A stretch of DNA of 64,000 nucleotides from Asterionella formosa (GCA_002256025.1 NKIB01012903.1:1-64000); one strand, 5' to 3'. Positions 2,734 through 42,281 are shown, counted from the stretch's first letter. The notes: generated from the sequence alone by a model not told the origin. Numbers and translations are program-made.

Positions 2734-3947
2734 TGCGTGTGGATTGTCGGTGGTCCTTGCTATTGATCGCTCTGATTGCTTTGCATGCGCAGCAATGCAA
2801 AATGAAACGTGTTGCTGAATGAGTGTTTGAGCGTTTGTTCTTGACGCACTGGAGTTGTTGCTCGACGAAGGAAAGGCCTCTTGCGGGAAACAGACTATTA
2901 CCTGGTACGATGACAACAATGTATCAAGGATGCCCAACGAAGGGGAAGTAATAGGAACACAATGACGGGTGATGTCCACACAGTTAAATAGCAGTCAAAA
3001 GTCCAACACAAACGAAGCAAAGAAATTTCAATTAGGATGAAGATTTCTATGTGATAGCATTACCGGTATATCTGTATGTGGTGTAAATAAGAGTATAATT
3101 TTGTTCGTTCAGCAACCACAAAGAAGAACCATACCGGTATGCACTGCATCATTACCGTTTTCCTGTTCGTGCATGTTTGCGTACCTCTACCACCCTACCG
3201 GTAGTACACCGATTTCACAGCCCATCCGATACGAAGCAAAGCAGCCATCCTCGCCACCTATCAATTACTGCGTACTATCAATAATTGCAATGATCGGGAA
3301 GTGAAGTTACAGTTAAATTGTAACGGTTTTCATGTAAAAAGCAATTACATGCCGGAATGTATAGTACCTGGTACCTGGTACCGGTATATGCATAAACATG
3401 ATTGAAGTTATTTGACGATGTGAAACCCGGCAAGTTGCGGTAAGAATGATGTAAAATTGGTTGGTGAATGCATACATACTATATGTATGCCGGTATCTAA
3501 AAATTAGTCATGAACGCCACCAATGGTCATTCCCCTTATGCATACTGTCTGTGCATACAGGATGCTGAGGAATACATACACCGGTACGTCAGCGTGGACG
3601 ACAGGTACGGTACCGGGTACCAGGTAGTAGTACCTGGTACCTTACATCTATCTCCTGACATCATCACGCCCTCGTCGCTAAATACGTACCGTAAATCTCT
3701 GTGTAATTAAAAAAAGCATACCGGTACCGGTATTGTACCTGCCAGTATACCAGTACCCTTCCTTCATACTGGTACCAGGTACCGGTATACTGATCCTGAG
3801 CAGAGGAGGAGACGATTATATCTTTTTAGCTGACAAGGTCAGGACTGATGGGCCTCCTTCACTCACTCCCCATCCATCCTAAAAGCAAAACAGTTTTTAT
3901 TATTTTATTATTCATAATTGACCTTCTACAACAACCCACCTATTATC

Positions 3948-5156
3948 ATGTACCAGCTTCCCGTCTCCAAAATCAAGTTAACCAACGTGGCTGTCGTGAA
4001 ACTCAACAAGGACGGCAAGCGCTTTGAAATCGCCTGCTATCGCAACAAGGTCCTCAACTACCGACAGGGCATTGAAACAGACTTATCAGAAGTGCTACAA
4101 ACGGAACGCGTCTTTGTCAATGCCCAAAAGGGGGAATTCGCCAATCAGAAAGTGTTGCAACAAGTCTTTGGAACCACCGACGAACTTGCCATTTGCCAGA
4201 TTATCCTCACGACGGGACATGTCCAAGTATCGGACTTGGAGCGATCGCAGCAATCGCAAGCCATGCACCGGATGATTGCGACATTTATAAGCGAGCACTG
4301 TATCTCTCCTCAGGATGGACGGTCGTATACAGTCACGCAAATATCGCATGCCATGAAGGAAGCGGAATATGCAGTGCACCCGACAAGATCTTTGAAAAAA
4401 CAAAGTATGGATTGCTTGAAAAGACTTCAAACGGTGTTGCCCATTGTTAGGGCTAAAATGGAACTTCTCTTGACCTTTGATGAGGGTGCAGAAGTTACCG
4501 AACAGCTGGAGGAATGGCATATCCTTCCCACCGTTACTACTCCAACGTCTGTGACCGTTCTAGTCGACCCTAGTCAGTATCGGCCCTTGGAAGAATTGAT
4601 GAAAAAACTTAATGGACGATTGGAGATTTTGCGACAAGTTGTGAAGGAAGCCCCGGTAGCGGGGTCCTTGATCGATCAACAAGCACCAGAAAAAGAGGAG
4701 ATGACTGTTCTATCATTCAAACAAATCACTGAAACCGTGCAAGATATAACACTTCGAAACAGCGAGCGGAATGATGACGGTGAAGAAGAAGATGATGATG
4801 AACATCTCCCATCAACACGACGGGCTGAACAGAAGAAACAACAAAAACAATCCAAAAAGGCAAAACGTCGAGACAAGGAAGAAGCCATGGAACGACAAGA
4901 GCGAATCCAAGCGGAAACAAAACGTAGGGAAGATCGAGAGGGTGTGGCTGTCACTGCATCAACGACTGAATTGACCATGAAAGATACCAACAATAAGGCA
5001 TGCAACGCCTGTGGAGGATCTTTCACAGCCAAAGAGTATCGGGCTCACTTTAAAAGTGACTGGCACAGATACAATCAAAAATTGCTACTCAAGGGTATGG
5101 CAGCAGTGAGTGAGAACGAATTTTTATTGTGTGATGCTGATTTCTTAGCAATGTAG
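3948..5156 (+). CDS. SBDS: Ribosome maturation factor SBDS/Sdo1 with C-terminal C2H2 zinc finger
   Basis: N-terminal KLTNVAVVKL..GKRFEIACYRNKV..DLSEVLQ..VFVNAQKG is the SBDS signature. C-terminal CNAC..YRAHFKSDWHRYN is a zinc finger. ATG at 3948. Confidence 0.95.
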   Translation: MYQLPVSKIKLTNVAVVKLNKDGKRFEIACYRNKVLNYRQGIETDLSEVLQTERVFVNAQKGEFANQKVLQQVFGTTDELAICQIILTTGHVQVSDLERSQQSQAMHRMIATFISEHCISPQDGRSYTVTQISHAMKEAEYAVHPTRSLKKQSMDCLKRLQTVLPIVRAKMELLLTFDEGAEVTEQLEEWHILPTVTTPTSVTVLVDPSQYRPLEELMKKLNGRLEILRQVVKEAPVAGSLIDQQAPEKEEMTVLSFKQITETVQDITLRNSERNDDGEEEDDDEHLPSTRRAEQKKQQKQSKKAKRRDKEEAMERQERIQAETKRREDREGVAVTASTTELTMKDTNNKACNACGGSFTAKEYRAHFKSDWHRYNQKLLLKGMAAVSENEFLLCDADFLAM

Positions 5157-7502
5157 CAATTGGAAAAGTCCATTAAAATAAATTTGTTTTGCAGCATAAG
5201 TTTGTCTAGAAATGACATACTCAAAAATCGTTTCTCGTGGGTATCGAAGCAGCAGGGAGCAAGAACATTTTTGTTATGTGTTACGATGGTTACATAGCGA
5301 TGTCCTACCAGTGCAGTTGCTAGTCTCAAAATGATGTAGTGCCTAACCATCCTTTTCGTTTGCTTAAACTTATCACTTTCACAGATTCCCAGTCATTTGA
5401 TGTGGAATGAACTAGGATTGAAAGTTGCCGAATTATGCTGAAACCTTCAGCAGAAATTAAATAGAAAGGACGCATGCTAACAAACCCAATACTTAAAACA
5501 GTTGTTGGCCCATTCAAAAACGTGTACCTTTGATTTTTGACAAGTGTATAACTATAGCCTTTGACTAAAAAACAGATCACATTCGTAGAAAAAGGAAAGA
5601 GTTAACAACATTTTAGTTTTCTAACAGAGGAAATCAAAGAGATCCTATTAAAATATGCCATTTCAAAATCATTATTCTTGAAAAATACATTCCTGACATA
5701 TGATTATCATCCAAAAATGATCTTATCCTTCTTTGCGTCAGCCATTTATCATTATGCTTAAATGTCATTTGTGACCATTGGTATCATGTTGTGCCTCCCC
5801 CTCTCTTGGTGAGTCTTCCCTTGGTGACTTTCATGAGTAGAGCACTCGGAAAACTTGTTCAGCTACCCGATGGGACCAACAATAAGAAATGCATTATTCT
5901 CAATGAAGACAAGCGAGAGCTGTGAGGAATTCGCTTTATTTCTAAAACAGGATCTTTGGTCCAAACTTGATGATGATGTAGCTATGAATTGCAAAGAAAT
6001 ATTTATTCCATGAATTTTCTCTAGTTTTGCTGTAATTTTTGGTCATCTGGTTATATAACGTTATAACCTTGTCACCTATATCATTGTGAAGGAGAGGGGG
6101 ATCAATTTATTTCTTTTGTTGGCTGGTCAAACAAACTCTTTTAATTGTGAGAGCAAATATTTGTAAAATTTACATGCTGGAGCTTTCAACTTTGGCTCTG
6201 AAATGCACACATTTAGACAATGCCAATGCCTTAGCTATAGTTAGTAGTTCTAAGGGTAGCTTCCATCCCATAGAGGTTCGGGTATAATTCAGCGCCAAAG
6301 TTATGTCTAATCTCCAAATAGGGCAGATTAACGTTTTTAGTACTACTAGCTACAGTATGAAATAATTGCTCGACTGCCGGTACCTGTATTAATGGGAATA
6401 GATTTTTAGCCCTACTTCAGAGTTGATACAGTAGCAACTTTCTTAAATGTGTTTTTCCTATATTTTATATGGCTTGAACTAGGTTACCACGTTTTGAAGA
6501 ATTCTGAGGACATATTGTTTCAGCAGTCAAGCTACCTAGTTAGTCCCATTACTGATTTCAGTAAATGGCTACATCAACTAGCTCCACCGCTCCCCGCCCC
6601 ATACTAATTCACTATTCTTGCCTAGAAATTGTTTCTCAATTATTTTGAACTTGCAGCTAGCTAGCCAGTACCATTATCCGGACTTCTTCGTCACTTCTAC
6701 ACTTTTGGCCCTGGATGACAACCATGCATGGCCAGATTTTTACAGCACCAAAGTTGTGACTGAGTCTACTAAACGCCTCATCGGAATTGTGTAAAGTCCC
6801 TGCTAGGAGCAAATACTGGTAGCCTTCTAGTATCTGTGACATCATGCATGAACCATGCTACACTGACTTTCAATTGTGGCTTATTGCCAAATAGCTTAAG
6901 CTACTACTTAGAATTAGCAAGTCCGACAGTCGTGCAAAATAAATCGTAAATATATATAGTCGGCCAATAAATTGTACTCTGTCTTACCAGCAGGACTTCA
7001 ATTTCCTTTGACACCACTAGAAACACCCTCAAGATCCAATCATCTTAACCTGGTACATAGTTAATTGTAAATAAAATCACACGCTGCACAATACTGGAAA
7101 GTGAGATACCCGTAGGTATCTAATTGACCAATTTAATGGCCTCCTTTCCCTCTGCTATTGTATTCAGCGTATGTAATGGCGTCCAGTTTGGGTTCGTATA
7201 ATGTTGTGACGATGAGACTTTATGACGCAATCATTGTTCCTTATTCACGACAGAAATTGCCCCTCCTTTGATTTCTCTATGATAAAAATATATGATTATA
7301 AATCAGTGGGGTTCTTAGCAATAATATCGGAACACGACGGGATTGAGGAAATTGGTGTGCAGTTGCGAGGAAAAATTAATGAAAAAACTATACGGATAGA
7401 GTAATGGTTTTGATCAAAGCAGTGTGTTCGATAATTGTTATTTATGCTAACAATACAGTTGTAAATGTAAGATGTAATAGATATGGAATCAGCCGTTTCA
7501 AA

Positions 7503-8411
7503 TTATGCCAGGACTTTCTCCAATAGGCATCCAAATTCATAGTCAGTATCCACATCGTCAAGAATATTCGAAAACATATGCCTTGAAATGTTCAGAATAT
7601 CTCGTAGATAATCTGACGAGTCCATTTCGTCTTCGCTGAAAGTTTCGATTTCTGACCGCTCAGCAAATACTTCGGGTTCGATGAAATGAAATGGTCTTCC
7701 CTCGAACAGGACGGTATCGTCAAACTGAACCGACTTTTCACCATCAAAGGGCACAGAGAAGGTCTCAAGAGGTGTTTGATGCGACATACTTGTAGTAAAT
7801 TCCGGAGTTATCGATCTTCCATTGTCAATTACAGGAGACATGGAATAAAAGTTGGGTTCGGCACTTGGGTTGCTTCGGGCTCTGACACCTGTTCCCTTGA
7901 TCTTCATGCGATGGATCTTGAGTGTCAACGATTTCTTTCCCCTGAGAAAGAGTTCATGGTAGTATCCTCCTTTGTCCGGTCCTTTAGTCAAGCGGTTGAA
8001 GCCGTAAAGGTTGAGCTGACGTTGGAAGGAGGCGAACTTCGACTGCTTGAAGTACGCAGGCATCACCTTTTCGGTAAACTCCTTGTGATCGTGCACGACA
8101 AAGCATCTACCGTGTGGTTGCCAAGAAACAACATGGGCGAGGCCATCGTCTTCAATCTGATCGAGAAGCTCGTGCAGTCTGAGAGGGAATGCAGTAGTCA
8201 CACCTCCTTTTACGGAAGGCGATGAACCGACTTCAACGTCGTCGTCGTTCAAGTGATCGTGGTAGTTGTGAATGACGACATGGTGATGGTCAGAATCTGA
8301 TGAGCTTGCTGCTGGTGACCAGAAGGAGACGTTAGGGAACATCTCTGGCTTGCAGGCTGCGGAGAGGACAACGGCCGGGCGTTCAATTCTGACTTTTCGT
8401 GAGATGCACAT
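7503..8411 (-). CDS. Heat shock factor (HSF-type DNA-binding domain), copy 1
   Basis: FPLRLHELL..VVSWQPHGRCFVVHD..YFKQSKFASFQRQLNLYGF..GPDKGGYYHELFLRG, plus the diatom-type HNYHDH and EPNFY motifs. Confidence 0.93.
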   Translation of the reverse strand: MCISRKVRIERPAVVLSAACKPEMFPNVSFWSPAASSSDSDHHHVVIHNYHDHLNDDDVEVGSSPSVKGGVTTAFPLRLHELLDQIEDDGLAHVVSWQPHGRCFVVHDHKEFTEKVMPAYFKQSKFASFQRQLNLYGFNRLTKGPDKGGYYHELFLRGKKSLTLKIHRMKIKGTGVRARSNPSAEPNFYSMSPVIDNGRSITPEFTTSMSHQTPLETFSVPFDGEKSVQFDDTVLFEGRPFHFIEPEVFAERSEIETFSEDEMDSSDYLRDILNISRHMFSNILDDVDTDYEFGCLLEKVLA

Positions 8412-9733
8412 CTTGTATTAAAGTAAGTACTTTTTTTGAAAGCATATACAGGGAGAAATTTTATGAGACCGAAGTGTCGTGAGGCATCATCATGAGTCAT
8501 TAGTATACTGGTACGTAGCATACTACCGGTATTTGTGCATTTACCTGTACCTTCATCATCCATAATATTGAACAGTGCTTTTTTACGAGTTTTTGGTACA
8601 GGTCCTGTCATATTAATGCTCTACTTCAACCTCTCCAAATAGATACGGTACCTGGTACTCCCTGGTACCATTGCCTTGGTCACGAGGTGGTACTCTACCT
8701 GGAGTACCTGGTACCTAAGATACTACGGGACCTGTGCTCCGTCGCTAATTTTCGGTTCAACTCTTCGGTGGAGTTTATTTTAGTTACCCCGGGGGAACAT
8801 ATCACTATTTTAAATACCGTGTATATGCGACACTTACTCATAATTATGGTTTGAATGACAGGTCGTACGTATATCCGATCATGAATGTACTTGATTACCC
8901 CCTGGGGCAGACAAATTCGTTTTCTTGTCAGTCGTAGAAATTCCATTCCTTTACTTTCTCTTCAAGCACGATCAACATGCTAAATAAGAAAAAGAGCAAG
9001 CCAATTCTAACAAAGAAAGAATCATACATCTATTGAAACTTTGACCATATGTACAAGACTATACGTGAGATTTCTCCGGAAGAGCATATCACTGATGAGC
9101 GATATTGTTCATATTAGTAACGGTAAGTAAATGGGATGAGACATCCAGGATTTTTATTAATATGCACCGGTTTTTACTTGTCAATGACTACCAGTGGCAG
9201 ACAAATCCGTAATATTGCAGGCAGTCTACCCGTCTACAGGAATGTCCAAGCACGATCACCATGAGGCATTTAACCTTCTGTCGTTGAAGTAATATACCGG
9301 TAAAAGCAAGCAAAACGCAACAAGAACAGCAAATATTGTCGTATGAATGAAGGCAGTACACTCAAATTCCCATGACTCAAATTTTCTAATTTTTGATCTG
9401 GTGGTTACCAGCAAGAAATTTTGCTGAAAATGAGAACACGACATTGAAGGTCTGATGATTGTATTCATCTGTAGAAGTAGGGCGTAAACATCATGAGAGG
9501 TACACCGAAATACCTATAGCTACCGGTATTTGACAATGTGACGTCGAGCCTGTTCACGAGGAGATTCTGCTAAACCATTTTGCTCCTCCATAAAGAAGTC
9601 TATTGCCTTAAATATATAAATATTATAAAAGACAAACTTAGCCGCTGACGAGGGAAGTAATTGAAGATCAGCATTCAATTCCATGCTCAGAGTTACGAAA
9701 TAAAATTCCTATCAACTCCTCCTGTAAATTTGC

Positions 9734-9966: not shown

Positions 9967-10048
9967 TGATGTAATTCGCTTAAGGTTAAAAAAATTATAC
10001 AGTGAAAATATAAGGAAAATGAAATTGTATATACCGGTAGACTTCAAA

Positions 10049-10921
10049 TTATGCCAGCAATACCCGCTCAAGCAGGCATCCGAATTCATAGTCAGTATCC
10101 ACATCATCAATGATGTTCTTCGAGACGTGCGAAATTTCTTCAAGAAAAATTTCCATATCCTCATCGCTGAAAGGTTCACTTTCGGGTTTGATGAAATGAA
10201 ATGGTCTTCCTTCGAACAGGTCGGTATCTTCAAAATGAACCGACTTTTCATCATCAAAGGGCACAGAGAAGGTCTCAAGAGGTTTTTGATGCGACATACT
10301 TGTAGTAAATTCCGGAGTTATCGATCGTCCATTATCAATTGCAGGAGACATGGAATAAAAGTTGGGTTCGGCACTTGGGTCGCTTCGTGCTCTGACACCT
10401 GTTCCCTTGATCTTCATGCGATGGATCTTGAGTGTCAACGATTTCTTTCCCCTGAGAAAGAGTTCATGGTAGTATCCTCCTTTGTCCGGTCCTTTAGTCA
10501 AGCGGTTGAAGCCGTAAAGGTTGAGCTGACGTTGGAAGGAGGCGAACTTCGACTGCTTGAAGTACGCAGGCATCACCTTTTCGGTAAACTCCTTGTGATC
10601 GTGCACGACAAAGCATCTACCGTGTGGTTGCCAAGAAACAACATGGGCGAGGCCATCGTCTTCAATCTGATCGAGAAGCTCGTGCAGTCTGAGAGGGAAT
10701 ACAGTAGTCACACCTCCTTTTACGGAAGGCGATGAACCGACTTCAACTTCGTCGTCGTTCAAGTGATCGTGGTAGTTGTGAATGACGACATGGTGATGGT
10801 CAGGATCTGATGAGCTTCCTGCTGGTGACCAGAAGGAGATAGTAGGGAAGATCTCTGGCTTGCAGACAGAACATTCGACAGCATCTAGGCTTTCATTTCT
10901 GACTTTTCGTGAGATGCACAT
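10049..10921 (-). CDS. Heat shock factor (HSF-type DNA-binding domain), copy 2 (tandem paralog)
   Basis: Same motifs as copy 1. The DNA aligns to copy 1 at an offset of 2510 bp. Confidence 0.93.
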   Translation of the reverse strand: MCISRKVRNESLDAVECSVCKPEIFPTISFWSPAGSSSDPDHHHVVIHNYHDHLNDDEVEVGSSPSVKGGVTTVFPLRLHELLDQIEDDGLAHVVSWQPHGRCFVVHDHKEFTEKVMPAYFKQSKFASFQRQLNLYGFNRLTKGPDKGGYYHELFLRGKKSLTLKIHRMKIKGTGVRARSDPSAEPNFYSMSPAIDNGRSITPEFTTSMSHQKPLETFSVPFDDEKSVHFEDTDLFEGRPFHFIKPESEPFSDEDMEIFLEEISHVSKNIIDDVDTDYEFGCLLERVLLA

Positions 10922-13404
10922 CTGATGTTACTTGCGTGGGTGAAATAAATATACTTTATGTGCTTTCCTTGTTATATTTTATATTTACTTTAACATGTGT
11001 GGGAAGGCCATTTCTCTGTCCCTCAGATGATTGGCTAGTTCGTTTCAATTAGGCCCACAGTAGTACAAATACTCAATGAGTCTGTTCTTGTTGACAATGA
11101 CTTTTTTTTTTATTTAACCAATAAATATGTTCGTTTTGCTGATGTCGACGAAGGAATCGACGTATCTCTTACATCGTTGCCTTCTAATATTGAGTTGAGC
11201 ATGTGTGGATTCAACAATACGCGGTATACAGGTCCACTTCGCACTCCGAGTAAGAAGTGATCAAAATGAAACACATCCAAGTCCTTCCTTGTGTATATCC
11301 AACACCTCTAACCACCGTTGGATCCAAACCGGTACTCACGTATGTCGACGAGGTACCATTACTCTATCAATATTTCCGAAGATGTCTCTAAAGATTTATT
11401 TCCGGTATCTGTAGTTTATAATTTCCTTGGAATTTTACCTGTCACCAGGTACCAGGTACCGAGTGCAAGAATATTAAATCTAACAACAAGTACCGGTACC
11501 AATTCCGGTAATAGAAAGTTTCGGATAGTCTTTATGACTATGATATATTTGTGAAACCGGGGGGGCATTGTCATGTGACATCAAGATTCAAATTAAAAAG
11601 GTGATTCAAATTTTCGGAGATTCTTCATGACCATGATTTACAAAGACGACGAGGGGGCATTGTCCTGTGACATCATCATTTTTTTATGCAGCACAACTTC
11701 AACTAACGTCTGGGGGCTGGATGCAAATTCCAGAAATCGTGTAGCCTTGTATAGACCTGATATGCTATCAAGTAACTGGAACTTAAATATTATATAATTC
11801 GCGCGTAATAGTGTTGATCACCGTGGTGCTCACAGTCGTTGCTTTTTCTTGTTATTACGCTCTGCCCCTTCAAGGCCTGGCTAAAATATTGCAATTGTCC
11901 TGATGAGTAGAACTTAACTGAGAAAGGGCTGCTGCACATTAAGGCATTAGTTTTGACATAGTTCACATTTGAAAGTGCAAATACCTGCTTTCTCACCTAC
12001 AAGCAAATATTGCCAATAGAATGAGTAAATGCTCAGATAATAAATAACTTGTTTCAAATCTTTTGTTTGATTTCATCATGTTATTGTTTAAAAGTGCTTA
12101 GTAATCATATTACTTGTTGTGCAGCTTTTGTGAAGGTGTCTGAAAATGACATGAACAAATGTGCCTTTGATGAATTCAATTTTCATTGTCAATATTGGTG
12201 TTAAAAATTCTATGTTTCATGGAGATATTTGCTATTTTCGTCAGTGTCAAGGCTGAGACGAATTAATTAAGGATACTCAAGCCAAAACTCACAGCAACTT
12301 CTAGTACAATCGAGCAAAACCTAAACTGCTGCACCCAACTCTGCAGGTTGCAGTGGGCCTTTTGAAATGTTGGTGGTTGATCTTGCATGCCATTGATACC
12401 CACAGTTGTCTTTTTTGAAACTCTTTGTACGGTTGCACTTGCACTGTGACGCGACGAATTACTGCCATTGTTCCTTGATGAAAGCTGAGAGACACCAATC
12501 AGAGAGACACCAGAGGAGGGATCAGCCCTGCTGTCATCATCACTGGCGCCTTTATCGGCATCATCTTTTTTCTCTTCCTCATATTGGGATTGCAACTCTT
12601 GTTCCTGCTCGAGACGGCGACATTCTCGCAGCCTTGGGGAGGAAGGGACACCCTCTCTGGCTGGTCTCCTTTCCATAATGACCTACATCGGCTATTACTC
12701 TCAACTTTAATGAGCATGCATTTCAGGCTAAAAATATTTCTTTCTACAGACGTTGAGTATTCAACCAGTATCTACAAATGGCAATGCGGGTTACTTAAGG
12801 TACTACTACCACATAAAAATCTAAGCCACCGCTCCCGACATGACGACTTTTGAACTTTAAAGCCACCGCTAAATGGAGTAAACGCACGATTTAAACTTAG
12901 TTTGCAAGATACACTTATTATTGTAAAGAAAGCCTTGTTGCTCAGATATATTTATAGAGAGGAAATACTTACGTACTTGTATTGTTGCATTGTGTAAGTT
13001 GTAAAATAATCATTATGGCCCAAAGGTTTCTGTCAACGCGAAATTGCGGAAAATGAATATTTTCATGTTTTCCGTACTCTATTGAGCTGGCATCGCCTTT
13101 TATATATGTGTATATGTACAATAATAATAATATTCTTTCCATAGAATTAATTTAGTATAGTAAATAATGAGTGTACGACATCATTGTGCTTTCGAATACA
13201 CTAGTATGCACCAGAAGAATTTGGTGTTGATGCAAGCGCAAGATGTATATGTACGGTATCGCGCATAACAGGTAAAGTAATACGAAAAGAATTTCTGTAG
13301 TATAAACGGAGTAAAAATAATCACGGTTTGGGGGAAAATATATTTATGTACGGGTAGAAAAATATGCACTGGAAGCCACAGCTATGCAACAATCTTAATG
13401 ACTA

Positions 13405-16109: not shown

Positions 16110-16625
16110 TGTCCAAATTGGTAGCATTTCATTTTTACTACCAAATTGGTATCTATTGTTGGCATTAGGGTTAGGGTTGAAAACGATGCTACCAATTTGG
16201 ATCAAAATTGGTAGCAATTTTATTTTTACTACCAATCGGGTTTCAAAATTGGTATCAGTTGTTGGCGTTAGGGTCAGGTTTTGAATGTGGCTTGCTACCA
16301 ATTTGGATCCAAATTGGTAGTAATTTTATTTATACTACTACCAATTTGGTTTCCATATTGGTATCTATTGTTGGCATTAGGTTTTAGGGTTTGAAACATT
16401 GATAAGTTTACTTTTACTACTGATCGGGTTTCCAAATTGGTCTCTATTGTTGACATTAGGGATAGGATTTGAAATGTTGCTATCAATTTGGATCCAAATT
16501 GGCATCAATTTTATTTTTACTACTAATTGGGTTTCAAAATTGGTATCAATTGTTGGTGTTAAGGTTAGGTTTTGAATGTTGCTTGCTACCAATTTGGATT
16601 CTTGATTTCCAAATTGGTATCATTG
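16110..16625. repeat. Tandem array (units about 80-106 bp) with a 26-bp palindrome and TTAGGG-like motifs
   Basis: Perfect ctaccaatttggatccaaattggtag at 16295-16320, with variants at 16188, 16479 and 16585. Each unit ends in gttggcattagggttagggttg-like sequence. Confidence 0.9.
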
Positions 16626-16771: not shown

Positions 16772-19597
16772 TTGCAACCACCAAAAACAATCACATCAAC
16801 AATCGAACCAGAATCTCAACTAAACAGGAATCATCTAATCAACCATGATTCATTGCTGAAGTTGCTGCAGGAAGATATCTGTTGCAAAAGTTGTGTTAAT
16901 GCATTTGTAAATGAATATTGCAAACAATCACTTTGTGACTTTGTAATTTACTTTACATCAAATAGAAAACAAAAGCTGTCCATCGAACAGCAATTTAAAG
17001 CATTTCTAGACCAGGGAAGTATGCTTGACCAATCAATTGCATGCATGAACAAACCATTGATTGTTGTGTCTTCGGAAAATTTCGGCTTGGCAAGCGAATT
17101 CGAAGTCTCCTGTTTCACCTGTCAGGAAATTATTTCTAAACTCGAATCTGCAAGAAGCAACAACATTGATGACAATGGCGAGATAAAAAAACAAGGAATT
17201 AGAAGCAAAACACTTTTCTATCAACAAAGAGTTTATTTTGGGTTTTCATGAAGCCGGAATGGGACCAGCTGATGCAGATATCATTTGCTCTGCAATGAAC
17301 TTACCACTTACATTTGGATTTGGTCTACGCAAGGTAACTTTGGTGTTGTAGAGGAAATGGTAGGAACAGCCGAAATGGCTACAACAGCTCTTGCAGTGAA
17401 AGACGCGTGTCACGAAGAAATATATCAGACGCTCAATGTGCATGAACGAGGAGATTGGGCTGACAAAGGACGTGACTTTCAGTGGTGGAACAGTCTTACT
17501 ACTGCTACGGACCGCTTGTCTGTACTCAATATGCCGCGACTCACCGTTAGTTACGATATGGGCTGGCAGCAGCAATAAAGTGGGAATAAGTACAATTCTG
17601 TAATTGGACATGCTTTTTGTATTGGTGGCTACACGAAAAAGATACTAGACTATCGTGTGAAATCTAAAGTCTGTAAATGTGTAATGTGTGCGACAAGGCT
17701 ATACGGTACAAGAAAGTTGCTCCAAGAATCACCTAACTGGTGGTTCAAAGGCAATGGAACCAGACGCTGGTGTGTAAATGATGATTGATGCAGTTGCTAA
17801 GCACAATGTCATCTACTCAACAATCATCTGTGATGATGATTCTACTATTAGAGCTGTTTCCAAACGGTTCTATCAGGAGTTATTGAAACTACAGGCATCC
17901 TTCCACTGGCCAAGGACATTAAAAGGATTAAAAAAATCCGACAAAGGCTGATGCCTTCCGCTGAATATACCCAAACCTAAATATTTTTCTGACCCATCCT
18001 CCCACAGAATATGGGTCATACTCCGCTCTGCATTTCTGAAAGCCAATGACCCAGTCTCCCTAGAACTTCCTTCAAAAGCAGATTGCCTTCGACTAAAAAA
18101 TTATTATGTGGCCTGTATCAAGAAAAATCGCAACCTTGCTCTGACCGAATTCACTGAATCCTCCAAGGCACCAATCAACCACTTGTTTGGCTGCAATGAT
18201 TACTTGGTGCCCTGTAAAAGCAGGAAAAAATGTTAGCAACGGAAAATATCATGACAATGAAAAAGAAACGAAATTATATCAATGGTTGATGTTGCATGTT
18301 GCAACGAAAGTCGAAGGCGAAAAGCTGCTATCATTGCATCATCCCTTTGACAATCAGATTAATGAGCGATGCCATGAACAATGCAGTGTAATGACGATGT
18401 CCAAAAAACAAGGTGTTTGCTGGATCCGGTGGCCTGCAATAAGGTTCCTTTGGTTGCTGGGCAGCACACACAAGGAGCTACACAATACACAAAGGATGTA
18501 TACAAGCAATGTGGAAAATTGATGTCACAACTGCAAGAATCATTCTGGAGACAAAAGGAAAAGCAACGGAACGACGATGCAGCCTACAAAGCCCAATTTA
18601 AATCGAAAAGGAAATGAAACGAAAAATACATACCACATGATTTGCAACAGTCCAACAAGAAAGAAGGCAAGACAACAAATCAGGTAAGACTTACAAATCT
18701 GGTGTGGCACTAACAGAAAGTCATGAGACAGCAAGAAAGTCAAAATGATAATTCGTCAATATAAACATTGTGGCCAAAATGATCATCGAAGGGAAAGCTT
18801 CGCACTGTGTCCATTCTTTGAAGGCAGACTGTATTCTAGAACTGGTACACGTACGATCAGTGATGATCAGCTACCGGTAGTGGATGAAGAACCTGCAAAC
18901 ACGCCACAAAATGTTATATGTGCATCCAGTGGTGTGGCCAGCGCTGGTTTGCACGACCGCGCAAACCGGGCCAATCAAATGGAGGCAAGTAATTCATGTA
19001 ACCCAATCATATTATATATGTGAAAGCGGGCACTTACAATGGAATCTTTTGTACGGGAGATTTTACTACTAAATATTTTAGCACAAGACTACCATTCCGA
19101 TGATGATGTTTCGGCAATTATTGATTCTGATGCCGACATTTTGGATACCATTGGAAATGCCGAATTTTTGGAGGACGATAGCTCAACGTTGTTGGCAGGG
19201 TTTGAAGAAGAGTTAAGCACATAGGTAATCTTCATATAGCCCCAGCAGTTAACTTTCGGCGAGAAACTGCAGAAAGGAACTTCGGATATTTTACTAGGCC
19301 AAATAAACAAGTTGGCCCGGTAAAATCCACTATTTTAAGCATACTGTAGTTGAAAAACCGAAGTTCCTTTCTGCAGTTTCTGGCCAGATCCTATATACTG
19401 ACGTTATATAGAGTTGACCTTTACCCCTACTTCGATCAATGACTGTATCTAAGCATATGGAAAGGGTTTCCAATGGTGAAAGCTCCGAGTAGCGATATAA
19501 ATATTTATTTTAGATGTGAAAAGTATGTGTTTGATTAGTCTGATTCAATATTAGTTTTTCAACCCTACCCCTAACCCAGGGCTGACATGCAGGAACC
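16772..19597 (+). mobile_element. Decayed DDE DNA transposon (Mutator-like PF20700-type transposase; TTAA-flanked end suggests Kolobok), left end missing
   Basis: Fragmented frames: LTVSYDMGWQQ..GNKYNSVIGHAFCIGGYTKKILDYRVKSKVC, KAMEPDA, TIICDDDSTIRAV, CLRLKNYY..APINHLFG and a C-terminal HCGQNDHRR..CP knuckle, with many stops and frameshifts. The right end reads gctgacatgcaggaacc|TTAA (19597|19598). Confidence 0.85.
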
Positions 19598-21727: not shown

Positions 21728-22283
21728 TTTTGTTTTATTCACTTGATGACTGTATAAGTTGTGTTTTATGAAGATATTTTGGGTGTGGCCAGGTCGTGTC
21801 GCTTACATTCCCTTACTGGTATTGACTCGTCCTCTTCTGGTAGCACTAACGGGCATTTGCAACAATTTTTAAGGAGAGCTAAAAATAGCGATACTATACA
21901 TATTTATCCTACATAAGCCAGCGCAGTGGCCAGCACCGGCGTGTGTCATATCATCTACCGGTATTTTCACCAAAGCTATATAAGCTAAATAGATAATGAC
22001 CATGCGCTTCTTCGAGACAAATATAACACATCAAGCAGTTAAAATGTCCATACCGGTATACTAGGTACAGAAATGTGTATTAGAAGTGAATACGGTATAC
22101 TTATTGGAGATTATTGTTAATCTTTTTCTATAGTAAACTGATAAATAATTTTATTTTCCATAATCTGCACTTTTTTAACAATGCAACTTGCAACTTTCTG
22201 CTGTATTTTACACCCTCTACACTAGCACTGGCCCCACGGCCCTCCCTACGTGCTGCTGCTGAATTTACCGCCCCCACCATGGT

Positions 22284-22891
22284 TGTCAGAGTGTGTCTGT
22301 TAGGCTGTTGATGTCGACAGGTGTCCGGAGACTAGGTAGTCTGAGGAATGTCTAAAACGGAAATAGACAGGATTTAGCTATATAGCAGAATAATCTGCAG
22401 ACGAGAGGTGCGAGAAAGATCTTGACTGGTCATTCCAGGGCAGTACTGGAGCGCGCTAGAGTACCGGTATATATTTTAACATGGTAACGGGTAGTACAAG
22501 TGGTACGAGGATATACGTGAAAACCAGAGGTCGACAGTTCGAGTCTTCAGGAAGAACAGAAAGAAAAAAGAAGAGAAAAAGACAAAAGAGATGAAGAAAA
22601 AAAGTGGGCACTATGAAAAATTCCTGTAGGAAAGGGTGTGTCGAGCATACACATTAGGATGATGTGCTATGTCGAGCATCAACAGGGGAGGGTGTCAGAG
22701 TGTGTCTGTTAGGCTGTTTATGTCGACAGGTGTCCGAAGATTAGGTAGTCTGAGGAATGTCTAAAACGGAAATAGACAGGATTTAGCTATATAGCAGAAT
22801 AATCTGCAGACGAGAGGTGCGAGAAAGATCTTGACCGGTCATTCCAGGGCAGTACTGAAGCGTGCTAGAGTAGGCGCCATATATTTTAACA
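22284..22891 (+). mobile_element. TRIM-like non-autonomous LTR retroelement
   Basis: Two near-identical LTRs (22284-22481 and 22693-22891), both TGTC...AACA. TGG immediately follows the 5' LTR, the purine tract ACAGGGGAGGG precedes the 3' LTR, and CATGGT is duplicated on both flanks. Confidence 0.9.
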
Positions 22892-25800
22892 CATGGTGTG
22901 GTCTTTGGACAAGGCACCAGCATGCGCTGCTGCCCCTCCAAGCAACCCTCCTATGGATAACATTAACCGCTTTGCTCCTGTCAAAACGCCACAAAAGAAA
23001 GCACCCAAATGCGCAAACAAGAAGTCAAAGCTTGACATCTGGAGATGAATGCCTCCTATATTAGGCGTACTTCAAGCACCATCCCGCCTCCTTCCCTCAT
23101 CCTCCCTCACTCATTGCACTCATCCCTCTCTCTGTCGTTACCATGCAAAACAAGAAGCAGAAGTGCTCCTTCCAGCTGCAATCGCCCACTCCCCTCATCA
23201 CAGTGGCATCTTACTTTACCTTCTTTTCTTTGCTGATCCTACCTCGACTTACTCTGCATGCACTCCGGCCAATGGATTCCATCGGGTGTCTTCAACCTTC
23301 TTGTTCTGCCTACTACATTTCATCCTGGCAATCGACTGCCAGGCTTCTCAATTCAAATTCACCAAAATGGCATACAGTTTGCCAAAACAAATTACTTTCT
23401 GTTTCCTCCAAGACCCTTCACTCTTGCTCTCTTATCATGTCTTCATTGAGATACTACGCTCCTCATGCTGATTCTACCAACTCCCGGATTCTGTTTTCAA
23501 AATAACTCTCCCAAATTGGCCTTCCATTTTGCTCGCTTTTTCCTCTACTTTTCTACACATGACTCCAAACCCTCTAAGGGCCCCAGAATGGGCTCCTTGC
23601 CCTAGCTCACAATCTCTATGGTTGTTTTACCCCCAAACTGCAACCCCTAAGAGTTCCTCCAGGAACTCAAGCAACCTCACTCGTCATCCCCTTGGTGCCC
23701 ATATCATGGGCCCTAGTGCGACTCCAAGTACTCCATTAGATTCGAGTTTCAATAAAAGCGTACTTTAAGATTTATTTGCCAACTATTTTCCATAATTGGC
23801 ATGTGTAAACCAGTATTTGGATGGCAGACACCCCCTCACAGGTGACGCAATTAATAGATTAGCCAAACATCAGACAGCGATTTGAATTGACTAGACATAT
23901 TTTGTGGACTCATTCTTATGTTGGTGAGAGGGGCAGCGCAATGCCAGGCAGTTCCAGCTCATTTGCAGGTAACAAGCCCTTGTCATTAAACTTCATCATA
24001 AACAAAAGAAGTCTTTCAAAACTTCTTTTTTTTTCTTATGTGAAAACAATCTTCATGGGGAAACATCAATCTCTTGATTGGCGTTTTTTGTATAAAGAGC
24101 AGTTTGTTTGCATATCTTGTGCCAGTGCATCCATGAGCTTGGCCCCTGCGCGCCAGTAGGTGGCTCCCTATACTTTTAATGGCACTGACAGCCACTTTTG
24201 CACTGCTATTTACTGATAAGCAATGATCACTCAATCCATATTTTACCACAAGGTGAAGGATGTACCACAACCCAAAGGCAAATTGGTAAGTTGGTCCATG
24301 AGGTGTCATCTAGTGTTTCCCTGAAATTCTTGACATTTTATGCTCTTCTAACTGTTTTTCTTGCTTTATTGAGGTGGAACAGGCACTACAGCATGCAACA
24401 CCTCAGGTTTCAACACTTCTCCAGTAAGCGCAATTCATCAATGGCAGCACAGTTCAGTGCTGTCTACAACAGGTGATTTTTAGTATAGATACTTTGGATA
24501 GACAAGTCCATCAAAACAAAAAATTAGCTGATAAGTCAGCAAGTATTGAGATCATTTTCTTTTAAGGAAGAGACTCAGGAAGGCGGACTGCAATACCAAC
24601 CATGACTGGTGTGGGTTGTTGAAAGAATACAGTTTTTGCACAAAATGACCAACTGAAAATACACAATTGGTCAATCAGGGGAATTAGTGACATCATCTTA
24701 TCATCGAAATTTCTAGTTGCCAAGTAAGGAACAAGCACTGTATTGTTGTATGTAATATGTGACCAATGGTACATAGCATTACCTATAAATCAGAATATGT
24801 AAATAGTTACAGTTAACCAAAAAATATAGCAATCGTTACCTAGTTATATCCATGAGCTTTTTACTAATTTAGAAACTAAACTAGCTCAATGGATCTGAAA
24901 TACCTTCCATGAAATAGCTTTGTCCGCAGTTGCGACTCTTTGGGAAGTTCAGGCCTTAGCACACGTTGTCTGCGCTATTTCACTCCACCAGAAGTGGTGG
25001 ATTTGATACCATTCGTAAGGTCGCGTCAAAAGGCTAGTCGCAACGGACTCACCATGCCCGAGTCCGTCCACAATTGCAACTTTATTATTCAGTTATAGAC
25101 CTCCAGGGCTAACATTTAGCTTGGTGAGAGGCATAACCAGCACTTCAGAACACTTCTGAATACAATGTTCGATCTCAAAGTAGGGACTCGTGCACTGACT
25201 CCCTTATGGTTAGAGCGTTACCCAGACTAACACGGAGACATATTCTCTAGTAATGCACGGGTGACCCATAAGAAATATTCACTTGTTACCAAAGCTAGGA
25301 TCAAACCGGGAAGAGATTATTGAATGACATGATTACCCTTAATTCTAAACCAAGGGTACTAACAGGACCTTATGGTCTATACAGTCTCAAGGTTTCTTTA
25401 ATGGCCATCCAAGTAGCACAAGGCAAAATGTAGCTATGTCTACATGTAACATTGAAATGACCTAATCAACACATCATCAAAGGAATATGAACCACAACAT
25501 GGTAAGTACAATTATGAACGTCAGAGGTATTTTCTTGCATTTTGAGCTGTTCTACCCTTTTCGACTTTTCATTTCTTAATTTTTCTTATTTATTTGAACA
25601 GAAGACAGAATTGATCATTCAGCACAAGTTTTCAAGCTAGATATTCAGTGGCGTCGCTACTTTGGATAATATCTTTGAAATTGAGCAAACAACAACCAAA
25701 ACAAATTCTGGTGACGATTTTAATATTTGTAAGCAATAATTATGCGTAAATTTCTATCATTGAGCGAACCAATACCTTGGCTATGTTAACTAGGCAAGCT

Positions 25801-26095: not shown

Positions 26096-26453
26096 AGGGA
26101 ATGGCTTAAAGTTTTAGCACATGTTGCCTTCTTGTTTGATCTGAGGCTGTGTGGTTCGATTCCCACAATTTTTTGAGAAGCAATTGTTGTATTCGAATTC
26201 CACACTCCTCACCGTCCCGCATGGTGGTCTTGCCCGGTGTGCAAGGAAAAGTGGGTTGTTGCCCCCCCCCCCACCACAAGCAGCTTGATTCGCCTTCCAA
26301 GGCGGTCGGAGTTTCTCCTGACGCTGCGGCTATGATGATCACCTTTCTCGAAGCACAAGTCTTGTCGGCAGGTGACACAATGAAATACTTGCCTAAAGAA
26401 ATAGGGTAGCACGAATGGGATATAAAAGAAACTAATTTTATATACCATTATTA
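26096..26453 (+). mobile_element. tRNA-derived SINE-like element, family 1 copy A
   Basis: Aligns along its length with 28434-28805. It has an A-box-like tggcttaaag, a B-box ggttcgattcc, a central C-run and an AT-rich tail. Confidence 0.75.
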
Positions 26454-28433
26454 GTCCTACATATGTAGCAACCAGTACCTAGTACCAGCATGTAATATTA
26501 TTCGCAACTAGCAAGTTGAGGTCATTTTGCGCATAGGGAAAACGTGACAACGGACTGGCGCTTATGTTCATCATTTGATATGATGGAGAACGTCTTCAAT
26601 TAATGAAAATCATCTATATCACAACTTTGTGATGTAAGTTTAATATTAATTATTCTTCCAAATTTGAAAAACGTCAAAATTTAAGTGAATGGCTTGAAAA
26701 AGCAAATGACAAAGACCAGTAAGCATAAGAATCAAAAGTTGCAAAAAGTAAGCAAATCTTACTTATTTTTCTTTATTTTCTCCAAACTTTAAATTCGCTC
26801 GCTTTTGCAGCCCAAGTGATGAAAACAACCTACCTTGATTAACTTTTTCAAAGGCATTGGGATTTGAAATTCATAGGAACTGCCAGCATCAGCCATGATG
26901 TCAACTATGCAGTATCACTATTAACATTCCGCCTCCTCTCCGCAAAAAATTCAAGTTATCAAGCCTCAAAGGCACAATTAGAAATGTAATGGTGTCTGAA
27001 ACTCTTCTGAACAGACAACATGATGAAAAGACACTCCATGACAAAAAGGAATGATTTGCACCAAGAAAATCTTTCTAATTGGTGTGAATGCACGAATAAA
27101 CATAAGCAAGGCATTAAATTTGGATAGAATTTCTACCAATTTGCAAAGATGGAAATGATACTGCTGCAAATGTTGAAGATGGAAATGTTACTAGAGAGGA
27201 GGAAGAGTACGGACCATCTAGAAGAATTTACCGCACTGCCTGACTGTAACACTGGTGTCAGGTGTCAGTTCTTGAACCCAGTGATACTAAGTTATAGATA
27301 ATATTCCTATCCAGATTCTGAGTACCAGTAGGCATTGAACAAAGGAGTCATTTTTTGGACAGTATCATTCGATGATAGTAATAATTACTTATTTTATTTT
27401 ATTGAATATAAATCATTGTACTATCTTTATGCACAATACATCCATAAGAATATCAGATTCTATGATGCTGATCAGGAAAGTAATTTTGGAATAGAAGATC
27501 AATGGATTTAAATCCAATAAGGTATCAATGACAGCTAAATGATGAGGGTTTAATTGACTTTCCTCATGAGAATAAATATATATATTTTTAAACATGAACT
27601 AACGCCACTAACTCAAAGTACTTAATTGGAAAATATAAAATTGTGATGCTACCAGCAGATGGTCCTAAAACTTTTGCTTTTAAAATAATATCCCAATTTA
27701 ACTGATTTAGTGTCATCAAATCTAGCTAGCAATTCTGTAGAACATTCTGATTGGGCATTCTGCTGAACACAATGCAAAACAGATTGGTTGTTCGATATTG
27801 GCTTTTTACGCTTTGCTTGTTGTGCGCGGGCGGGGTCTTTCAAGAACAAACTTCCCAAATTAGGTAACTCGTGAAAGAAACAATATAGGCAATCATTGTT
27901 GACTGTCTTGACCAAAATTTCAAGTGAAACTTGGCAAGAAGTAGTACCTCAAGGAAAAATGGTAAAACAACTTAATAAATAACGTTTGCCTGTACCGTAC
28001 TTGGCTTTTACATATCATTGAGTTCAAAATGAATTCACCTGGCTGGTTTACCCGCCATGTAAGCAAGATGCAACCATTTCAGTGACATGCAGTCAGAAGC
28101 AGGTCAATGCCTACATTTCCCAACTCCCCTTATGTACATAACCGCTCTTTGATACAGGTATAATCAAAATAAGCCTTCCTTGCGGATTCTTTTCAAAACA
28201 ATGCGTTTGTTCATCCTCATAGATTAATCATACATTTACTACTACAAGTACTTGTCACTGGCAGTGTTTGAAGTACATAATGCAAATGTGCACGAGTTGA
28301 AGACTCATTATAGGTAGAATCAGGGGTTCATTTACACACCACTCTACATATCTAGCGCTGCAAAATATTGTTATTATGACATCAACACCAGCAGTACTTG
28401 TATCATGGAAAAATAATATAATGCACATTGCTA

Positions 28434-28805
28434 CCAGGGAATGGCTTACGGTAGTTGGTTGAGCACGTTGCCCTTGATCTGAGGTTGTGAGGTTCGATTC
28501 CTGCAACTTTTTGAGAAGCAATTGTTGGGTTCGACTCCCACACTCCTTACCGTCCCGCACGGTCTTGCCTGGTGTGCAAGAAATAGTGGGTTGCCCCCCC
28601 CCCCCCCCTACAAGCAGCTTGTGCCGCCTTCCTAGGTGGTCGGAGTTTCCCCTAACGCTGCGGCTAAGACGATCATCTTTCGTGAAGGGTGGTTGGGGAC
28701 TCACCTACGCTAACAAAACTAGGGAAGCACAGGTCTATTCGGCAGGCAGCACAATGAATACTTGAAAAAGGGGAGTAGGAATGGGCTATAAACAGATTAT
28801 CATTT
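28434..28805 (+). mobile_element. tRNA-derived SINE-like element, family 1 copy B
   Basis: A-box-like tggcttacggtagttgg and two B-boxes (ggttcgattcc, ggttcgactcc). Flanked by TATAATGCACATTGCTA (28417-28433) and TATAATGTACATTGCTA (28806-28822). Confidence 0.82.
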
Positions 28806-39337: not shown

Positions 39338-40337
39338 GGTCCCTGTATTTCAACCTAGATTAGAGTTAGGGTTATAAACAAAAATTAAGTCAGAGATTTC
39401 ACCAATGTGCACCATTTCCATGTGCTTAGATACAGTCTTCTGACAAAGTAGAGGTATAGGCCAATGCTATATATATATTGTCAGGATATAGGATCTGTCG
39501 AGAAAGTGCAGAAAGGAGCTTCGGTTTTTCATTATGCTGAAAATAGTGAATGATACTACTAGGCCAACTCGTTTATTTAGCCTAGCTGAAAAACCAAAAG
39601 TTCCTTTCTGCACTTTTTGCCGAAAGTTAACGTCTGGGGCTATATGAAGCTGACCTATGTACTCAACACTTCTTCAAACCCTGCCAACGTTGGGCTATCC
39701 TCGTTCGAAAATTCGACAATATTGGCCTGCTTTTCAACGGTCTCCAAAATGTTGGAATTAGAATCACCAATCGCCGAAATGTCATCATCGGAATAAGAGT
39801 CTTGTGATTCAATTTTTCGTCCTACAATCTTCTGTGCAACAAATTCTACTTAAGTGCTCAATTCACTATAAATTTTTTGATTGGTCAAGTTCAATTACTT
39901 ACCGATATTTGATTGGCCCAGTTTGTAAGGTCTTGCAAACCCACACCGGACACACTGGATACACAATTAAAATTTTCTTGGGTGATTGGAGTTACGCCAG
40001 TACGACCATATCCACTACTGGTACCAGTAGATGATTATCATTTGACATATGCGTACTACCACTCCTAGGGTGCACTGCAAATAATTGCTGAGCCGCTGGG
40101 TCTATTAACACATAAACCGTCGATCAGTGAGTAGTGTTTATACCGGTATATATAGAGAGATGTACAATCTTTATCTATATATTTAGCAAATTCGAAAAGG
40201 GATCTATGCACATACGCGCATATTTTTACTGAAATCATGTCATTTAAATATAGCTCGTAAAAGTTCTTCTTTCCAAGGAATTTCGGCAACCCTAAGCAAT
40301 TTTATAATTCTTGCCTAAGGGTTGAAATGCAGAAACC
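39338..40337 (-). mobile_element. Non-autonomous 1.0-kb derivative of the TTAA-flanked DNA transposon
   Basis: TTAA|ggtccctgtatttcaacc ... ggttgaaatgcagaaacc|TTTA gives imperfect 18-bp TIRs. About 39340-39960 is the reverse complement of about 18920-19597. Confidence 0.85.
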
Positions 40338-40400: not shown

Positions 40401-42195
40401 GGTTCCTGCATTTCAACCCTTAGGCAAAAATTATTATATTGCTAAGGGTTGCCGAAATTCCCTGGAACTAAGAATTTATGGGAGCTATTTTTAAATGACA
40501 TGATTCCGTTTGAATTATTCAAATCAGTGGAAATTTGCGCGTACGTACCTAGATTCCTTTTTGAAATAGCTAAATATATATAGACATTGTGCATTACTGT
40601 ATGTATATGTACCGACAATTATTTTTCTTATAGATGACCCGGCGGCTCGGCAAATATTTAAAAGTGTAATCAACGAGTGGTACCAGGTACCACACGTTTG
40701 ATGTCCAATGATGATAATCTACTGGTACCCGCACTGGATATAGTACCAGTAAAAACTGCCATGACCCATTGAGAATATTTTTGAACTGCCGTGACCCATT
40801 GAACGCAGAATAACACGTTTTGCAATCAAAACTTAAATAAAAATAGATTTTGAGAGTTCTGGCTCCTTCCCGAGCATGTAGGCTAGTCAGCCATGTAATT
40901 AGTTTGAGATTTGGAGCAAATTGTTCATCTCGATAGATTGCCTGAAATGGTCGATCGACCGAAAAACCATAAAGAACACGGATTAGGGTAATTTTAGAAG
41001 TTACCGCATCATATGATATTAGACGATCAATATAATGATTTGAACCTTCATCTCATTTGCGACAATATAGTATATCTTATCTTGGTTTTGACTTCTGCGG
41101 AGATGGAAAATTATTTAGGCGTCATCATCATGCAAATGCGTTATGTATGATTTCGGGTATACCAGGTACGGAGTACATACCAAGTTTTCATCGTACCTTT
41201 CTAATAACACGCATGACAAGTGCTTTAACACATGACTTAATCCGTCCTCGAAAATGTCTATAAATTTATATTCGTTTATCTAGAAAAAAGTATATACTGC
41301 CATGACTTATTGAAATCACTTTTAAGCTGTTTTATTATCATCATATCTTCTGATGAAATCGTTCTATCAGAATTCTAACACGACAGCTTGATTGATCGAT
41401 GCAGCTTTGACACTTTCGAACAAACGGAACCGCAATTCGGTAGAATTTACCATCAGTCGGAGGAGTTAAACAAACACCCTAACTCAATGAGTCATGGCAG
41501 TTTTTTACTGGTACCGGCCTACCGGAACACCCAAAGAAATGTTACACGTGTATCCAATGTGGCCGGTGTGGGTTTGCAATTCCTCTCACAATCAAACGGA
41601 GTCGAGTTTTTCGCCATAGCTAATCAGGACATATATAATACTGCGCGCATTTACAATGGAATTTTTGATACTGGAAATTTTATCACTAAATATTGCATCA
41701 CAAGACTACCATTCCAATGATGACATTTCGGCGCTAAGTGGTTCTGATTCCGATATTTCGGAGACCGTAGAAAAGGCCGATTTTGTCGAATTTTTAGACA
41801 ATGATAGATCAACGTTGGCTGGGTCTGAAACCGATTTAGATACATAGGTAACCTTCAAATAGCATCGGTATATAAATTACTTCTGGCGAGAAACTGCAGA
41901 AAGGAGCTTCGGTTTATTTACTATGCCAAGCAAATAAAGTGATTTCCCCCGAAATTTCTGGTCTTTATAGCATAGTTCAAAAACCGAAGTTCCTTTCTGC
42001 AATTTCTCGCCAGATCCAATATCCTGACGATATATAGCGTTGACCTGTGCCCCTAATTTTGTCAATGACTGTATCCAAGCTTATGGAATGGGTGTATATT
42101 GGTGAAATCTCCGTTTAGCGTTATACATATTCAATTTATACGTGAAAAGTATGTGTTTGATTAGTCTGACTCAATATTAATTTTTAAACCCTACC
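40401..42195 (+). mobile_element. Internally deleted derivative of the same transposon family, right terminus lost
   Basis: Starts TTAA|ggttcctgcatttcaaccc. A remnant LEVTASYDI lies near 40995, and 41550-42195 aligns with 18920-19570. Confidence 0.82.
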
Positions 42196-42281
42196 TCGAG
42201 CAAGCAACCTTTTATATGTGTTTGATTAGTCTGACTCAATATTAATTTTTAAACCCTACCTCGAGCAAGCAACCTTTTATA
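42150..42281. repeat. Perfect 65-bp tandem duplication
   Basis: tatgtgtttgattagtctgactcaatattaatttttaaaccctacctcgagcaagcaacctttta occurs twice, at 42150 and 42215. Confidence 0.95.

Follow-up and report, generated by a model that had tools for sequence, protein, structure and literature searches.

The locus examined here raises the question of whether two short direct repeats around a small non-coding interior belong to a mobile family or are a remnant private to one place in the genome. The unit concerned is 608 bp long and lies in a stretch of 64,000 nucleotides from the diatom Asterionella formosa (GCA_002256025.1 NKIB01012903.1:1-64000; hereafter the window). An initial annotation had described it as a complete element resembling a terminal-repeat retrotransposon in miniature (TRIM) with an unusual 6-bp target-site duplication. 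Our analysis indicates with high confidence that the unit is one copy of a TRIM-type family of non-autonomous long terminal repeat (LTR) retrotransposons, because its short interior is common to other loci, because these loci carry 6-bp duplications of their own and because the LTRs cluster in pairs. The characteristics of TRIMs that were found comprise short repeats with TG..CA ends, a polypurine tract, a small and non-coding unit, a target-site duplication and dispersed copies, with the full form at at least two loci.

Reading of the sequence, repeat finding, global alignment and blastn gave an element of 608 bp with CATGGT on both sides, and the proposed layout (CATGGT, LTRs of 198 and 199 bp, a purine-rich non-coding interior of 211 bp) was measured exactly as it had been noted. 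The two LTRs are direct repeats with TG..CA ends, and their global alignment shows 9 substitutions and one indel of 1 base, which agrees with the roughly ten differences counted before. Elsewhere in the window, LTR and interior have no more than chance matches of 17-22 bases (blastn, E 0.12 or worse). As the next-best LTR match covers only 17 bases (E 0.12), the similarity of the LTR pair is far beyond chance and the element is single-copy in the window. The bases that border the two CATGGT copies differ before them (C on the left, the A of the LTR on the right) as well as after them (T and G, respectively), and the duplication is therefore exactly 6 bp long. The longest reading frame overlapping the interior has 65 amino acids, and an Rfam search of interior and element with E-values up to 1 returned zero matches.

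Related copies were recovered from metagenome contigs, which were scanned once with a 20-base probe from the start of the LTR. This revealed six contigs (L001-L006), all of which contain the LTR with 86-93% identity to the LTRs of the window and 87-93% to its 5' LTR in particular. The interior is present in three of the six, with 206 bases at 93.7% identity in L006, 211 bases at 87.2% in L004 and its last 36 bases at 94.4% in L003. L004 contains a complete 614-bp copy (913-1526) that is composed of an LTR of 195 bp, an interior of 225 bp and an LTR of 194 bp. The copy in L006 (2136-2605) comprises the 5' LTR and an interior of 221 bp, and is cut by the contig end 55 bases into its 3' LTR. Small indels aside, both align colinearly with the window copy between primer site and polypurine tract. 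The initial annotation had stated that a lack of further copies with the short interior would mark the unit as a one-off deletion of a full-length element; this interior was found complete in L004 and up to the contig end in L006. With at least two insertions of the miniature form, the unit is therefore not a one-off deletion.

Sequence matching the window around 22 kb is confined to the element in all six contigs, which indicates that their copies represent other insertion sites and not the window locus. The other piece that contigs and window have in common is a repeat of 58-82 bases, located near 50.95 kb in the window. Cross-comparison of the contigs showed that L001, L003 and L004 have a common 3' flank (97-99% identity) and that L001 and L004 also have about 1.1 kb of 5' flank in common (96.8%). 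With 97.3% identity over 1,764 bases, L002 is a variant of L006, the 91 bases in which L006 and L003 overlap are identical, and L006 and L004 have about 200 bp of 5' flank in common and are divergent beyond. Because L004 and L006 are united by this 5' flank and by the left duplication, we regard them as one insertion event. Judged from the flanks, the copies would thus trace back to three insertion events by our count, namely the one seen in L001-L004 and L006 in variant contexts, the one in L005 and the one in the window.

Two of the contigs contain solo LTRs, the usual product of recombination between the two LTRs of an element. In L001, a single LTR is located between both flanks of the L004 element, and in L005 a solo LTR is surrounded by unrelated flanks.

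The target-site duplication is a perfect 6-bp repeat at three of three independent sites (Table 1), with boundaries fixed by the family alignment. For the L004 insertion, the left copy of GGAGTC was also seen in L006 and L002 and the right copy in L003. The chance of a match at six of six bases is 1 in 4,096 at one site. Since all three sites are perfect, the length of 6 bp is a property of integration in this family and not an accident of the window copy.

Table 1 Features of the 608-bp element (window positions) and duplications at the insertion sites of the family.
Feature	Position	Strand	Sequence and remarks
Left target-site duplication	22278-22283	+	CATGGT; exactly 6 bp, identical to 22892-22897
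5' LTR	22284-22481	+	198 bp, TGTCAG...TTAACA; 95.0% identical to 3' LTR (blastn, E 2e-87)
TATA-box-like motif in 5' LTR	22379-22385	+	TATATAG; twin at 22788-22794 in 3' LTR
Primer-binding-site-like motif	22482-22491	+	TGGTAACGGG; directly 3' of 5' LTR; degraded compared to relatives
Interior	22482-22692	+	211 bp, non-coding, 71% purine; starts with TGGTAACGGG, ends with ACAGGGGAGGG
Polypurine tract	22682-22692	+	ACAGGGGAGGG; abuts 3' LTR; sequence read
3' LTR	22693-22891	+	199 bp; repeat finding, blastn, LTR tree
Right target-site duplication	22892-22897	+	CATGGT; sequence read
Duplication, window (left / right)			CATGGT / CATGGT
Duplication, L004 and solo form L001 (left / right)			GGAGTC / GGAGTC
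Duplication, L005 solo LTR (left / right)			TACCCA / TACCCA

Comparison of the LTRs within each copy provided an indication of age. Of the 198 aligned sites of the window LTRs, 9 are different (Kimura two-parameter distance, K2P, 0.047), compared with 6 of 194 in the L004 LTRs (K2P 0.032). In a FastTree phylogeny of the eight complete LTRs, the two LTRs of the window are sisters (support 0.93), as are the two LTRs of L004 (0.77). Such clustering of each LTR with its own partner is expected, because reverse transcription leaves both LTRs identical at insertion. Several of the differences between the window LTRs are changes from CpG to TpG or CpA. As the primer site of the window copy is damaged and its LTRs have diverged by 4.5%, this copy appears to be old and immobile, and most likely represents a relic that no longer moves.

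The signals for reverse transcription were compared among the copies that span them. TGG constitutes the first bases after the 5' LTR in the window, L004 and L006. The primer-site region reads TGGTAGCGGGCT in L006, TGGTAGCAGGCT in L004 and TGGTAACGGG in the window, where one substitution is present and the next five bases are missing. Eukaryotic initiator tRNA-Met ends in ...GCUACCA (A1:U72 pair, A73), and the form found in L006 would pair with a tRNA ending in ...GCUACCA. The TGGTAGC... form of the relatives, which we take to resemble initiator-Met sites, suggests that the primer tRNA of the family is probably initiator Met. At the other end of the interior, the polypurine run AGGGGAGGG adjoins the 3' LTR in all four copies spanning the junction. 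These copies (window, L003, L004 and L006) agree in the final 10 bases of the tract, CAGGGGAGGG; the base before is C in L004 and A in the other three. Furthermore, the TATA-like motif TATATAGCAG is kept in every LTR copy covering it in the family alignment and may serve as a promoter element.

A tRNA-derived interior was also considered, as some motifs recall the A and B boxes of tRNA genes. This candidate was rejected, as ARAGORN detected nothing with default settings or at thresholds of 90% and 80%, in agreement with Rfam. At 70%, ARAGORN made inconsistent calls in L004 and L006; these are noise, since 237 'tRNAs' were called in the 64-kb window at the same threshold.

Following the established cycle of LTR retrotransposons, mobilisation of the family would have occurred in trans. 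A promoter in the 5' LTR would give rise to RNA, which would be packaged and reverse transcribed with the Gag, reverse transcriptase and integrase proteins of some autonomous LTR element. A host tRNA would prime the minus strand at the TGG... site and the polypurine tract would prime the plus strand. The resulting cDNA with two identical LTRs would finally be inserted by integrase with a 6-base stagger in the target. The partner is probably of the Copia/CoDi-like type.

A number of points weigh against the assignment to a TRIM family. No autonomous element with these LTR ends, this primer site or this polypurine tract emerged from three scans of viral contigs and two scans of genome contigs, which gave 0 matches with three LTR probes (one of them used in both collections) and one interior probe; nor was such a partner present among the six metagenome contigs. 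Among the 39 window reading frames of 130 amino acids or more, the 18 that were scanned with Pfam contained neither a reverse transcriptase nor an integrase. The primer tRNA is unmatched, as neither the 64-kb window nor the metagenome loci contain a tRNA gene for primer matching. Moreover, only one copy is present in the 64-kb window, L004 and L006 count as a single insertion and not as two, and the related copies are short-read metagenome contigs that possibly stem from other strains or species. The solo LTR of L001 is also soft evidence, as a short-read assembler that collapses two LTRs gives the same picture.

The single copy in the window is in line with a private remnant, left by one full-length LTR retrotransposon after a unique internal deletion. 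We consider this very improbable, because the same short interior is found in L004 and L006, in colinear order between primer site and polypurine tract, at a locus that differs from the window and has its own 6-bp duplication, and because the flanks exclude a misassembled version of the window locus. Even less credible is a local tandem or segmental duplication that mimics an arrangement of LTR, interior and LTR without reverse transcription. Nothing specific speaks for it, other than that the window also contains short pairs of direct repeats lacking TG..CA ends, at 16141-16619 and 26096-28687. Such a duplication is at odds with the TG..CA ends, with the TGG right after the 5' repeat and the purine run right before the 3' repeat, as well as with perfect 6-bp duplications at three of three sites, solo repeats with the same duplication and dispersed copies.

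A further possibility, which is compatible with a TRIM origin, is that the element has been kept as a working part of a promoter shared by the adjacent flavin-containing monooxygenase (FMO)-like gene and the next gene on the plus strand. The FMO-like gene is encoded on the minus strand, with its first Met codon starting at 21727 (Pfam FMO-like, E 8.7e-16). The element is intergenic and begins 551-557 bp upstream of this codon, in keeping with the distance of about 550 bp given in the initial annotation. This proximity and the conserved TATA-like motif in each LTR could point to such a function. The window copy decays at a rate like that of the other copies, with 9 of 198 LTR sites different and a deletion in the primer site, and no orthologous locus was recovered; exaptation is therefore improbable in our view, if less so than a deletion or a local duplication. 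The TRIM-type family remains the preferred assignment of the 608-bp unit.

One copy of this family may be connected to the ribosomal RNA genes. Positions 1-47 of L006 match, on the minus strand, the initial 47 bases of a eukaryotic 18S rRNA gene that is cut by the contig end (Rfam SSU_rRNA_eukarya, 45.3 bits, E 7.1e-10). The TRIM copy of L006 is located about 2.09 kb upstream of this gene in opposite orientation, and hence probably lies in a ribosomal DNA spacer. A location in ribosomal DNA could explain the sequence variants L002 and L006, and perhaps also L001, L003 and L004. Downstream of its TRIM copy, L004 is transposon-rich. It carries a fragment of a reverse transcriptase domain there (RVT_1, 4293-5057, minus strand, E 3.2e-9), which lends no support to a partner because it is not bounded by TRIM LTRs. 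A weak DDE_1 endonuclease fragment (2552-2836, plus strand, E 1.5e-4, just below the cut-off) is likewise not bounded by these LTRs.

It may be speculated that a diatom TRIM family with a 6-bp duplication at every insertion reflects an undescribed autonomous LTR lineage, possibly related to CoDi6.2, whose integrase cuts with a 6-base stagger. The insertion seen in L006, some 2.1 kb upstream of an 18S rRNA gene, would persist in both full-length and solo-LTR variants, and its amplification would perhaps be due to the ribosomal DNA array and not to transposition alone. We regard this extended scenario as unlikely, though less remote than any of the alternatives weighed above.

The family resembles the TRIMs of plants, whose LTRs measure about 100-250 bp and have TG..CA ends, and which possess a TGG primer site, a polypurine tract, a total length below 1 kb and a 5-bp duplication. 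Compared by description, both have short LTRs, a non-coding interior of a few hundred bases, a flanking duplication, solo LTRs and a presumed mobilisation in trans; the present family differs in its diatom host and in the 6-bp duplication found at three sites in place of 5 bp. Cassandra TRIMs and retrozymes are non-autonomous LTR elements with a 5S rRNA-derived or a hammerhead module (PMC5680766). They are also small, non-coding and LTR-bounded and possess both a primer site and a polypurine tract, whereas the element contains neither a 5S nor a hammerhead sequence (Rfam, E up to 1) and none was found in the loci at the gathering score. [quoted passage not shown]

In diatoms, duplications of this length have precedents. 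The 22 reference rows of full-length elements for Thalassiosira pseudonana in supplementary Table 10 of Filloramo et al. 2021 (PMC8147415) list 4 bp in 4 rows, 5 bp in 13 and 6 bp in 2, with none found in 3. Both 6-bp rows are CoDi6.2 elements (AGGAAG and GTTGCC) with LTRs of 242-246 bp. For Phaeodactylum tricornutum (supplementary Table 11 of the same study), most rows give 4 or 5 bp and a few give 6 or 8 bp, and Maumus et al. 2009 cite the duplications TTCC and ACAAG (PMC2806351). A duplication of 6 bp is hence uncommon, yet has precedent. The term 'unusual' in the initial annotation was too strong in view of the textbook range of 4-6 bp, in which 6 bp is the highest value, and of the diatom Copia elements, although the exact length of 6 bp was confirmed and extended to three of three sites. 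According to the descriptions in PMC2806351 and PMC8147415, CoDi families have LTRs of 150-250 bp with TG..CA ends, include 6-bp duplications in CoDi6.2 and could supply the proteins for mobilisation; they differ from the TRIM family in being 5-8 kb long and coding, with mostly 4- or 5-bp duplications.

The initial annotation had also not been aware of TRIMs as a well-described group in diatoms. This statement goes too far, since the Phatr3 annotation of P. tricornutum lists 27 copies of 'Putative TRIM/LARD' with 7,291 bp (Rastogi et al. 2018, PMC5859163); what holds is that our searches of open-access PMC and bioRxiv texts revealed no curated account of a TRIM family from a diatom. The Phatr3 entries are likewise reported as non-autonomous LTR derivatives in a diatom genome, but their class stems from automatic classification. 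In a haptophyte, 240 potential TRIM sequences were annotated, with no manual check (PMC5963040). The family is an ordinary representative of a known kind of element and constitutes a newly documented set of copies, which leaves the known workings of LTR elements unchanged. With exact boundaries, a conserved polypurine tract, a 6-bp duplication and solo LTRs, it can serve as a seed for curated diatom repeat libraries. Its LTR ends, primer site and 6-bp stagger provide a handle for finding the autonomous mover.

Regarding the surroundings of the element, the protein-atlas clusters nearest to the FMO-like protein are mostly from Bacillariophyta and the window contains HSF-type genes in tandem, which we treat only as a lead to a diatom host. 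Of 24 sequencing runs listed, 20 share words with 21800-23400 and 8 are on record as RNA; the runs belong to 13 studies, mostly freshwater or lake metagenomes, and these matches have no bearing on expression or habitat.

Several other repeats were observed in the window and the contigs. A repeat of about 110-130 bases beside GGTACC-rich sequence occurs in L004 (1545-1675), L006 (1639-1771), L002 (502-634) and the window (about 50925-51040), and looks like a palindromic repeat of the miniature inverted-repeat transposable element (MITE) type. Its L004 copy starts about 36 bases after the TRIM and forms a long hairpin with -29.4 kcal/mol and z -7.5, which none of 200 shuffles equalled, and the window copy has lost one hairpin arm (z 0.16). 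The repeat shows a weak sub-threshold match to the plant miRNA precursor model MIR7504 (36.8 bits; gathering score 83).

Another repeat of about 600-900 bp is present in three copies in direct and inverted orientation (18932-19588, 39390-39955 and 41589-42279; 70-88% identity), with a perfectly duplicated 65-base unit at one end (42150-42279), and probably represents another transposon family. A repeat of about 250 bp (26096-26353 and 28436-28687, also inverted at 189-257) contains a C-run and two motifs similar to GGTTCGATTCC, which resemble a tRNA T-arm. It may be a tRNA-related short repeat, and the pair at 26096-28687 was rejected as LTRs for want of TG..CA ends. The direct repeats of about 180 bp at 16141-16319 and 16432-16619 are 89% identical, 291 bases apart from start to start and each bounded by CCAAATTGGT; they were rejected as LTRs for the same reason. 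Finally, a gene with an HSF-type DNA-binding domain is duplicated in tandem on the minus strand (7453-8413 and 9997-10923), with about 96% identity over the 300 bases reported.

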